From contig JBNKBE010000006.1 in the NCBI GenBank assembly GCA_050287085.1, positions 138,381-202,380 on the forward strand: 64,000 bases of DNA, read 5' to 3'. Source of the DNA: Polyangiaceae bacterium. Its GTDB lineage: Bacteria > Myxococcota_A > Polyangia > Polyangiales > Polyangiaceae. Made by a program: the position numbers and the translations under genes. This document shows, in pieces, positions 62,075-64,000 of this stretch. The notes beneath the pieces are model-generated. The model saw only the letters and a program-made list of their open reading frames with translations, did not search any database and had not been told where the DNA came from. Position 1 is the first letter of the stretch. Each line of letters begins with the position of its first letter.

Positions 62075-63037
62075 TCAGGTCTCGCTGCGCAGAACCGCAA
62101 TCGCCACCCCTTCGCCGAGCGCTGGGGCCCTGGCGACGCCGAGCCCAAAGCTGCGCCCCGTAATCTCGAGCGCGGCAGAAAAGGTCCCTTCGCTCAGCGC
62201 CGCGACCGGATCTAGCGCCGCAATCGCCTGCGCATTCACTTCCGGCGAAGGACCGGTACCGTAGACCTTCTGGCCAACTACAACGAAAACGTAGACCAGC
62301 GGCCGCTTGCCCTCCTCGGTGTCGGCAATCCGCGTTGCAAGGGCAGCTTCCAACCTCCGGCAATAGAGGGACCACGCCCAGCCCGTTAGATAGACGCCTT
62401 TTGGCTTCTGCGTATCGTCTGGTCGAATACCGACGGCTGCCACCCATTGCGCGTCCGGCTTGCCCTTGACGCCATTGGCGGGCGCAAAGCTCCCGAGTGT
62501 CTCCTTATACCGACCGTTCTCACCAACGTCCCGCAACGACGCCCACGCCGAATGGAAGTTCTCACCCGCCATGAGGTCCTGCGACTGGTCATTGCGAATG
62601 ATGGTGCCGTCTGGGGTCGCAACCGCAAAGAAGGTCGACTTGGCGAGCCGCAGCTCCAACACCTTGAGGCGGGCCCGCTCGAGGGCCGCCTGCGCTGCCT
62701 GGGGGTCTCGAGACGCGTCTTTGTCGTCTGCAAACAGAATCCGCAGTTCACGTTCACCCAGAGGTAGCCCCGTCCGGACTTCCTGAACGTCTGCCGCCGC
62801 GACCGGAACCAGATACTCGGCGTGGGCCAGGGCCAAAGTGCGGCTCTTCTTGACCGTGTCCTCACAACCAAAGGCAAGAAAAGCCGCCGTCGCCACACAC
62901 ACGTCGCGACGGGTAGGAAAGCCGTCGCGCCCCGTGTTCGGGCCATAGGCGGAACGATTCCAACTCGCCCACCCCCGACTCGACGCCAGCACCCGGCTCC
63001 GAGCCGCATGCTCGTGACCGCATTTGTTCCGTTTCAT
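62075..63037 (-). CDS. Hypothetical lipoprotein, possible Tat substrate with Cache-like fold
   Basis: PTRRDVCVATAAFLAFG-C signal; AVATPDGTIIRND..DL.AG.NF Cache-like pattern. Confidence 0.6.
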   Translation of the reverse strand: MKRNKCGHEHAARSRVLASSRGWASWNRSAYGPNTGRDGFPTRRDVCVATAAFLAFGCEDTVKKSRTLALAHAEYLVPVAAADVQEVRTGLPLGERELRILFADDKDASRDPQAAQAALERARLKVLELRLAKSTFFAVATPDGTIIRNDQSQDLMAGENFHSAWASLRDVGENGRYKETLGSFAPANGVKGKPDAQWVAAVGIRPDDTQKPKGVYLTGWAWSLYCRRLEAALATRIADTEEGKRPLVYVFVVVGQKVYGTGPSPEVNAQAIAALDPVAALSEGTFSAALEITGRSFGLGVARAPALGEGVAIAVLRSET

Positions 63038-63096: not shown

Positions 63097-63999
63097 CTAA
63101 AGGTTGCGCGCAGCGGCGAGTACTTCCGCGGTGTGCCCGGCGACACGCACGCCGCGCCAAACAGCCCGAACCTTACCCGACGCGTCCACCAAGAAGGTGG
63201 AACGGACGATGCCCATGTACTCGCGCCCGTAGTTCTTCTTCAATTGCCACACCCCTAGAGCCTTTGCCAGTGCTTGCTCCGTGTCGGCCAAGAGCGAATA
63301 CCCAAGAGAGTACTTCTCGTCGAACTTTCCATGCGTGGCCGTTGTGCCCGGGCTGATCCCCAAAACACGCACCCCCAGGGCCTCAAACTCGGCACCTTCA
63401 TCGCGAAAGCCGCAGGCCTCCTTAGTGCAGCCAGGGGTATCCGCCTTGGGAAAGAAGAACAATACGTAGGCCGCTCCGAGAAGCGACGCCCCGGTGACTG
63501 CAACATTCCCCTGATCGAGCAGCTCGAACTCTGGCATGGCGTCCCCTGCGGAGATGGCGTCCCCTGCGGAGATCGCATCGCTCGCCGTCTCGCTTTGAGA
63601 CGCGGCAGCTGCCTTGCCACGCTGGCTGCGCTTCGCCTCCCCCGTGTCGCGGGCCTGGACGGAAGGTGATGCCGCCGCGTCAACGGCTTCTTCTGCCAAC
63701 GCGCTGGGGCGCCCCACTCTCTTTGCAGTGGCCTTCTTCGCAGTCGCCTTCTTCGCAGTCGCCTTCTTCGCAGTCGCCTTCTTCGCAGTGGCCTTCTTCG
63801 CAGTCGCCTTCTTCGCAGTGGCCTTCTTCGCAGTGGCCTTCTTCGCAGTCGCCTTCTTCGCAGTCGCCTTCTTCGCAGTCGCCTTCTTCGCAGTCGCCTT
63901 CTTCGCAGTCGCCTTCTTCGCAGTGGCCTTCTTCGCAGTGGCCTTCGCAGTCTTCTGCTTAGAGCCGCCGTTCTTGGTCGCTGCCTTCTTGGTGCGGCT
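63097..63999 (-). CDS. bcp: BCP/PrxQ peroxiredoxin with N-terminal histone-H1-like Lys/Ala repeat (5'-truncated by window edge)
   Basis: [35 protein letters not shown]; the frame stays open from 63999 through the (KKATA)n tract into the domain. Confidence 0.9.
63725..63946 (-). repeat. 15-bp tandem repeat encoding (KKATA)n
   Basis: 14 full units of gcagt(g/c)gccttcttc plus one partial unit. Confidence 0.95.
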
Positions 64000-64000
64000 C

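Follow-up and report, generated by a model that had tools for sequence, protein, structure and literature searches.

A putative nucleoid tether on a BCP/PrxQ peroxiredoxin: lysine-rich tails at either end of the enzyme in several bacterial lineages

The window, a 64,000-nucleotide stretch of a Polyangiaceae genome (G000:C6:138381-202380), ends inside a gene whose full-length product (P0001) joins a long, very basic N-terminal tail to a BCP/PrxQ peroxiredoxin domain. We hold, with slightly better than even confidence, that the tail would serve as a non-specific electrostatic tether keeping the peroxidase on nucleoid DNA; the putative nucleoid targeting of peroxide detoxification that the initial annotation of this DNA had suggested is on this view slightly more likely than not. 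Polyphosphate, RNA or ribosomes are possible alternative partners of the tail. Far from being a one-off, the fusion recurs in several lineages and at either end of BCP.

The gene lies on the minus strand, as do all features described here for it, and its part within the window (the last 300 codons and the stop) occupies 63097..64000. The frame had been read as free of stops to the window edge, which is correct: it ends at 63097 and translates as first written. Beyond the edge it stays open as far as an upstream stop ending at window-equivalent position 64347. The upstream sequence, which the initial annotation had wanted retrieved, supplies a likely in-frame start, an ATG at window-equivalent 64209 (G000:C6:202589; L001:6209), 209 bases past the edge and preceded by a GGAG that ends 6 bases before it; the worry that no start might exist upstream of the repeat can be set aside. 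This single open frame encodes 370 amino acids, with a predicted mass of 37.8 kDa at 14 repeat units. By composition, the product begins with a near-neutral Ser/Gly-rich leader (residues 1-34, beyond the window edge), followed by an imperfect Lys/Ser/Ala/Thr-rich part of the tail, of which residues 71-92 lie at 63934..64000 and residues 35-70 continue past the edge. Then come 14 tandem KKATA units with a 15-base DNA unit (residues 93-162; 63724..63933), a near-neutral Ala/Ser-rich linker predicted to lack secondary structure (residues 163-215; 63565..63723; pLDDT about 40-55), and the peroxiredoxin domain (residues 216-370; 63100..63564). An 18-base tandem duplication is found at 63536-63573, where the linker ends.

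Assignment of the domain to BCP/PrxQ comes from Pfam (AhpC-TSA, 112 bits), from PDB sequence matches, which are BCP/PrxQ structures, and from the predicted model, in which pLDDT is mostly 86-98 over residues 221-370 and whose top Foldseek matches are BCP/PrxQ structures (TM 0.84-0.91 by target). The PxxxTxxC...C domain called intact from the letters alone is so. The active-site motif of P254, T258, C261 and C266 (63412..63450) is invariant in a 25-row alignment, and residues 254-266 match the BCP-typical PKxxTPGCTxEAC exactly (motif as given in PMC8945050). C261 (63427-63429) is the peroxidatic cysteine by motif and C266 (63412-63414) the predicted resolving cysteine by its CxxxxC spacing, that of the E. 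coli-type 2-Cys form, found in 120/120 listed homologues. The catalytic Arg336 (63202..63204) is likewise kept, in 25/25 alignment rows. P0001 misses the cut-offs of the NCBIfam bcp equivalogs PRK09437 (129.3 vs 140 bits) and NF053650 (130.4 vs 260 bits), which are nevertheless its two best NCBIfam matches, and at a handful of nearly invariant sites (251, 253, 256 and 288) its residue is not the consensus one; its membership in the subfamily is by motif and fold, not by these two models. It is the sole BCP found in the source genome, which is 97% complete and also holds a thioredoxin gene. Compared with single-domain bacterial BCP/PrxQ structures (Xanthomonas 5iiz/3gkk, Burkholderia 5enu), the fold, active-site motif and catalytic Arg are alike; those proteins are about 155 aa and tail-less, whereas P0001 has 215 extra residues.

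Those first 215 residues are predicted to be disordered, with AlphaFold pLDDT of about 40-55 and no structure. Residues 35-160 hold 51 K+R against 1 D/E, and the net charge of the tail is about +50. The (KKATA)14 array reported initially is present in the assembly as exactly 14 tandem units. At the DNA level it is a 15-base unit in 15.1 copies with 96% matches, and its score of 405 is the highest among the 13 tandem-repeat rows of the window. The units vary at synonymous positions only; to judge from these sequences, the array is a recent local expansion and not a conserved element. Pfam HC2 (PF07382) matches residues 35-191 at 62.7 bits against a gathering score of 40, a compositional match to low-complexity sequence. 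The NCBIfam Hc2 model (28.4 vs 135 bits) and Burkholderia H1-like model (40.3 vs 80) fall below their cut-offs, and the segment, fused as it is to an enzyme, is not classed as Hc2. No hydrophobic stretch resembling a signal peptide occurs in P0001 or in any of the 120/120 homologues, which rules out an export signal of that kind; the protein should therefore be cytoplasmic and meet DNA, RNA and polyphosphate. Copying of the tail from another Lys-rich gene of the genome is not supported: 31-mers of the repeat occur at the bcp locus only, and similarity of the tail DNA to the other tails is about 70%, as composition predicts. Such copying may have taken place in the distant past.

The copy number of 14 stands for the assembly and is uncertain for the genome, since read depth points higher. 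A look for sequencing runs that contain this DNA turned up one, and none of RNA; that one is possibly the assembly's own source and so not an independent check. No contig of that run spans the array, and its contigs break within it. The flanks have equal depth (12.8 and 13.4), and for the six repeat pieces listed, of 14, depth is 1.6-2.1 times what the assembled number of copies would give. The assembly may have collapsed the array, whose true count could be about 24 units. Because the unit is 15 bases, the frame is kept whatever the number.

Translation of the tail is indicated by the relatives. The internal ATG at M225 (63535..63537), which the initial annotation had allowed might be the only start, is a poor start because it falls within the BCP domain's first motif, which is conserved. 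Start codons are not conserved there; among 120 homologues the site is Ala in 98, Val in 16, Leu in 3, Met in 2 and Ser in 1, and we reject it. The suggested search of Myxococcota homologues for Lys-rich N-extensions found them. At the same locus, 15/17 same-genus genomes have at least 8 Lys in 30 residues upstream in frame; of the remaining two, one has 7 Lys and one is interrupted by a contig end. Neighbouring genes are conserved at this locus among the relatives, so the tailed bcps are orthologues at one locus. A search of proteins of 203-648 aa, a length filter that selects extensions and not their composition, found 435 homologues; the best 120, those listed, are all N-tailed with a net charge of at least +8. 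These 120 tails have a median length of 86 aa and a median charge of about +21, and their pooled composition is 29% Ala, 20% Lys, 9% Pro, 9% Ser, 8% Arg and <3% acidic. Lengths among homologues range from a few residues to >200. The initial annotation stressed the (KKATA)14 array, but the relatives keep a net positive charge and low complexity, and neither that repeat nor its length.

Constraint on the tail was estimated from close relatives, dN/dS of divergent pairs being left unused because low-complexity sequence aligns poorly. In the closest pair, tail dN/dS is 0.39 (Fisher p 0.003) and domain dN/dS 0.06, and the differences in tail length add up to multiples of three. For another close pair the values are 0.57 for the tail (p 0.22, not significant) and 0.10 for the domain. 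From these comparisons, the tail appears to be coding and under moderate purifying selection.

Across phyla, BCP is normally single-domain, as the initial annotation had supposed, with a Lys-rich tail in just 3 of 80 loci (2 N-tails and 1 C-tail); this set is a background sample, not a census, and consists mostly of distant BCPs among the matches listed. A quick tree built from 133 BCP domains places P0001 inside a group of 43 rows (SH-aLRT 84), in which 32 rows have at least 8 Lys in 30 residues, 6 have 5-7 and 5 have fewer. Of these last five (<5 Lys in 30), one is cut by a contig end, two are Arg-rich and two are short. Labels in this tree refer to the N-terminal side only; L025, L029 and L034 read "none" there, yet they are C-tailed. 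More distant Polyangiaceae BCPs are mostly below threshold (38/40), with 2/40 reaching it and several carrying short stubs.

Tails are also found well outside the lineage of the window, N-terminal ones in a Phycisphaerae lineage and in a Bradymonadales protein. Seeding a search with a planctomycete copy gave 3880 proteins of 218-697 aa that contain BCP; the best 120 were listed and 119 parsed, giving 99 N-tails, 5 C-tails and 2 tandem BCPs with a Lys-rich linker. Named tailed members belong to Phycisphaerae/Phycisphaerales, Bradymonadales, Aggregicoccus and Myxococcus landrumensis, a cultured organism whose protein (WP_241757932.1) has a 166-residue C-terminal tail. In an order-level sample around the planctomycete, 1/14 loci was tailed. 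Around an Archangium genome, 33/41 genomes of the Myxococcus/Archangium family gave matches and 30 loci were read: 13/30 have a C-tail, 17/30 have none at threshold on that side, and 0/30 have an N-tail. Other families of the window's own order have a C-tail in 2/6 loci. Among the best 150 representatives at 50% identity there were 75 N-tails, 14 C-tails and 61 with none, using a profile that included tails and is hence biased toward N-tails. The idea that rhizobial-type Alphaproteobacteria carry tailed BCPs found no support in the order of a Methylocystis genome (0/30 loci read, 61-genome sample); a single alphaproteobacterial N-tail was seen (L110). The Atlas search returned peroxiredoxin clusters of 223-287 aa only. 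We also noted tandem two-BCP proteins (P0128, P0131, P0136 and P0137), three of them with a joining Lys-rich linker.

Tails at opposite ends imply at least two fusion events. In a 68-row tree, whose rows were hand-picked after the first tree had been seen, a single origin of all 24 N-tailed rows was rejected (p-AU 8e-5; LG+G4, quick tree), a test that does not distinguish repeated gain from a single gain followed by many losses. By these sequence comparisons, the fusion of BCP and tail has arisen repeatedly and at both ends of the enzyme.

Other redox enzymes served as controls, read in 18 same-genus genomes. Lys-rich extensions were found on 0/30 thioredoxin loci read (46 matches), 0/16 superoxide dismutase (SOD) loci (23 matches; 7 unparsed) and 0/7 loci of AhpC-like proteins (8 matches). 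The second BCP-like matches of the relatives (L276-L295) are also without a Lys-rich tail (0/20), and many have signal-like leaders and Ala/Pro/Thr linkers instead; this second, 1-Cys-like paralogue, present in many relatives and without a match in the source genome, is probably exported, to judge from those leaders. A six-frame scan of the source genome gave 45 frames with at least 8 Lys in 30 and a net charge of +8, of which 15 were Pfam-scanned and several lie on tiny low-complexity contigs; the genome's 14 other AhpC-TSA matches are all absent from this set. As far as tested by these sequence searches, basic tails do not appear to be a mere habit of these genomes.

The long H1-like tails among these frames are those of four proteins: the BCP, topoisomerase I, a protein with a receiver domain and a small one that stands alone. 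The stand-alone protein is 72 aa, Lys/Ala/Ser-rich and without Pfam match (L181:522-782, minus strand; G000:C7:23321-23581). Topoisomerase I (L184:120-2954, plus strand; G000:C4) has C-terminal lysine repeats, a feature described as characteristic of Actinobacteria (PMC5714199). The receiver-domain protein (L182:660-1640) has an acidic linker and a long KKAAKKVT-type tail that runs off the end of contig C27; the start of contig C16 (L183:3-242) carries the same repeat type, and the two contigs probably join at this repeat, judging by sequence. This protein is a candidate second nucleoid-tethered signalling protein, by analogy with FrzCD. A further 819-aa frame (L197:27-2483, plus strand; G000:C4) combines a long Lys/Ala/Glu repeat region with a C-terminal Fic/DOC match. 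The genome also encodes an HU-like protein, a Dps-like gene and a polyphosphate kinase. Replacement of Dps by the tail is not supported, as Dps-like genes occur in 20/34 genomes with tailed BCP and 16/32 with untailed BCP (p 0.62).

If the tail is a nucleoid tether, the protein would work as follows. C261 would attack H2O2 or organic peroxides, form a disulfide with C266 and be re-reduced by thioredoxin, as known for the family (PMC8945050). The tail would bind the DNA backbone without sequence preference, with just positive charge and flexibility mattering. Such tethering would concentrate the enzyme where DNA suffers iron-catalysed damage by peroxide, and the tail might also shield or compact DNA. 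Selection for a tether could then have led to repeated gain of tails on BCP, at either end, and not on the other redox enzymes checked. Weighing against the tether are the absence of a tail in many relatives and the weak constraint (dN/dS 0.39-0.57).

Precedents for a tether exist in bacteria and eukaryotes. In Myxococcus xanthus, the basic N-terminal tail of FrzCD is described as binding the nucleoid, with only its charge conserved (PMC5716589). FrzCD resembles P0001 in that a basic N-tail, variable in sequence and constant in charge, tethers a protein that does not process DNA in a myxobacterium (PMC5716589); it differs in being a chemoreceptor whose tail spans about 30 residues, whereas P0001 is a peroxidase with a far longer tail and a putative tether. 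The Plasmodium nuclear peroxiredoxin (PfnPrx/MCP1) has an AhpC-TSA domain and a long Lys-rich C-terminal region likened to histone H1 tails; it is reported to be chromatin-bound genome-wide, by ChIP-seq, and genome protection was proposed (PMC3064226). Its authors report that they could not express the tail, and direct DNA binding by it is not shown there (PMC3064226). That protein is eukaryotic and its tail follows an acidic region at the C-terminus, whereas P0001 is bacterial and N-terminally tailed; no sequence link between the two tails is expected. Dot5, the nuclear thiol peroxidase of S. cerevisiae, has a BCP/PrxQ-type domain and a basic disordered N-terminal part on chromatin, and its structure (PDB 2a4v) is among the matches to our domain. 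It is described as binding nucleosomes via a short HMGN-like motif, rich in Arg, that engages the acidic patch of the nucleosome (PMC13347269); the tail of P0001 is unlike this, being a long Lys/Ala repeat with no nucleosome to bind. P0001 shows the features of the PfnPrx/Dot5 kind, a peroxiredoxin domain and a predicted-disordered basic extension without export signal. In composition and repeat style the tail is like the H1-like Lys-repeat domains of the TopA C-terminus, HupB/HupS, AlgP and Hc2 (PMC5714199, PMC9239181), which differ from P0001 in being DNA enzymes or nucleoid proteins; Streptomyces TopA is reported to depend on its Lys repeats to bind DNA (PMC5714199). Tail-less BCPs have been described with chaperone and DNA-binding side activities, and some are said to bind and protect DNA in vitro, in a 2022 review that terms the relevance of this binding unestablished (PMC8945050).

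Dps follows the logic of the proposed tether, in that a basic tail attaches an antioxidant core to DNA. In E. coli, Dps is a ferroxidase with a Lys-rich N-terminal DNA-binding arm. Its fold and chemistry are unrelated to those of P0001, and Dps-like genes co-occur equally with tailed and untailed BCP.

Several other readings of the tail were weighed. It may be a tether to polyanions whose main partner is polyphosphate granules, ribosomes/RNA or anionic membrane lipid and not chromosomal DNA, in which case the peroxidase would protect the granules, the ribosomes/RNA or the lipids; we regard this as unlikely, though it is the likeliest of the alternatives. A polyphosphate kinase is encoded in the genome, the composition of the tail offers no feature beyond charge with which to choose DNA, and very basic proteins stick to ribosomes. 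The H1-like domain of AlgP, with its KPAA repeats, is reported to localise to polyphosphate granules (PMC9239181), just 175/554 Streptomyces Lys-repeat proteins are annotated as DNA-binding (PMC5714199), and the genome bears such a tail on a receiver-domain protein as well. Set against these points, the clearest other long tails of the genome are on topoisomerase I and the stand-alone H1-like protein, the myxobacterial precedent FrzCD goes to the nucleoid (PMC5716589), and the tailed eukaryotic relatives are described as chromatin-bound (PMC3064226, PMC13347269). Improbable, in our estimate, is a tail that is just a cheap, tolerated appendage, made of Lys/Ala/Pro repeats grown by slippage at protein termini in these GC-rich genomes and without a targeting role. 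The continuous range of lengths from short stubs to >200 aa, the near-perfect and recently expanded KKATA array, the weak constraint, the frequent absence of the tail in close relatives and the description of Lys repeats as typical of GC-rich bacteria (PMC5714199) would all fit such an origin. It sits poorly with the tail-less thioredoxin, SOD, AhpC-like proteins and BCP paralogues of the same genomes, with charge kept in 120/120 listed homologues though sequence varies, with repeated gain on one enzyme at both ends, and with dN/dS <1 in the closest pair.

Somewhat more doubtful still is a mainly chromatin-structural protein, in which the H1-like tail would condense DNA and the BCP domain would be a redox switch or oligomerisation module tuning compaction. 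The net charge of +50 does match the size of stand-alone H1-like proteins, Dot5 overexpression is reported to alter chromatin function via the basic motif (PMC13347269), and chaperone and DNA-binding side activities are attributed to BCPs (PMC8945050). Most homologous tails are, however, much shorter (median 86 aa), stand-alone H1-like and HU-like proteins are already encoded in the genome, as is a Dps-like one, and nothing was found that links the cysteine state to the tail. That the whole tail is an artefact, with the real gene starting at the internal ATG and the upstream repeat non-coding or misassembled, we consider highly improbable. A purine-rich stretch precedes the ATG at M225, the array is unspanned by contigs of the read set, and depth suggests another copy number; opposing this are the rarity of Met at that site (2/120 homologues), the upstream ATG with its GGAG, in-frame basic tails in 15/17 congeners, repeat units that differ at synonymous sites only and the equal depth of both flanks (12.8 and 13.4). 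An electrostatic tether to nucleoid DNA is the explanation we prefer.

No description of a bacterial BCP with a Lys-rich tail was found among the top-listed papers of the literature searched, which included few subscription titles; BCPs may be among the Lys-repeat proteins catalogued for PMC5714199. In the main text of a recent M. xanthus peroxide-defence paper, BCP/PrxQ goes unmentioned (PMC12754779). The parts are already known, an ordinary BCP/PrxQ and a known tether module, and their combination is known in eukaryotes; surprise is limited because BCP, Lys-repeat tethers and eukaryotic chromatin-bound peroxiredoxins are all familiar. New here are the true start, the evidence for translation and constraint, the negative controls among redox enzymes and the convergence of N- and C-terminal tails. 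We tentatively propose, with confidence a little short of even, that an H1-like polycationic tail has been joined, independently and more than once, to one end or the other of BCP/PrxQ, giving bacteria a peroxiredoxin dedicated to the nucleoid. Such proteins would form a widespread class of chromatin antioxidants that has gone undescribed, independent of Dps and convergent with Dot5 and Plasmodium nPrx.

Tail fusions speak to the ill-defined physiological role of BCP/PrxQ in bacteria: repeated fusion to BCP, and not to thioredoxin, SOD or AhpC, is comparative evidence for BCP at the nucleoid or another polyanion. If the proposal is true, tailed and untailed orthologues in cultured myxobacteria are a natural experiment on the suspected DNA-protective role of BCP, and Dps would not be the only means by which bacterial chromosomes get local protection against oxidants. 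Because Myxococcus landrumensis, which carries a tailed BCP, is in culture, the tether idea is directly testable.

The neighbourhood of the gene yielded further observations. Downstream and co-oriented is a 320-aa ORF (62075..63037, minus strand) without Pfam or NCBIfam match, found at 38-54% identity in the same neighbouring position in many relatives. It has an internal hydrophobic stretch ending in Cys, by eye like a lipoprotein signal, which would shift its real start inward. No Fe/Mn SOD match was found in the source genome; of the 16 congeners in which SOD was matched, 7 have an Fe/Mn SOD gene no further than about 5 kb from the tailed bcp (contigs G002:C36, G003:C347, G008:C14, G010:C50, G011:C44, G012:C235 and G015:C329). 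Outside the window, about 310 bases upstream of the bcp start, a divergent gene (L001:6520-6978, plus strand) encodes a 152-aa protein without Pfam/NCBIfam match; its relatives stand beside tailed bcp in many genomes at 64-74% identity, and its Atlas clusters are labelled "hypothetical protein" and are mostly from Myxococcota.
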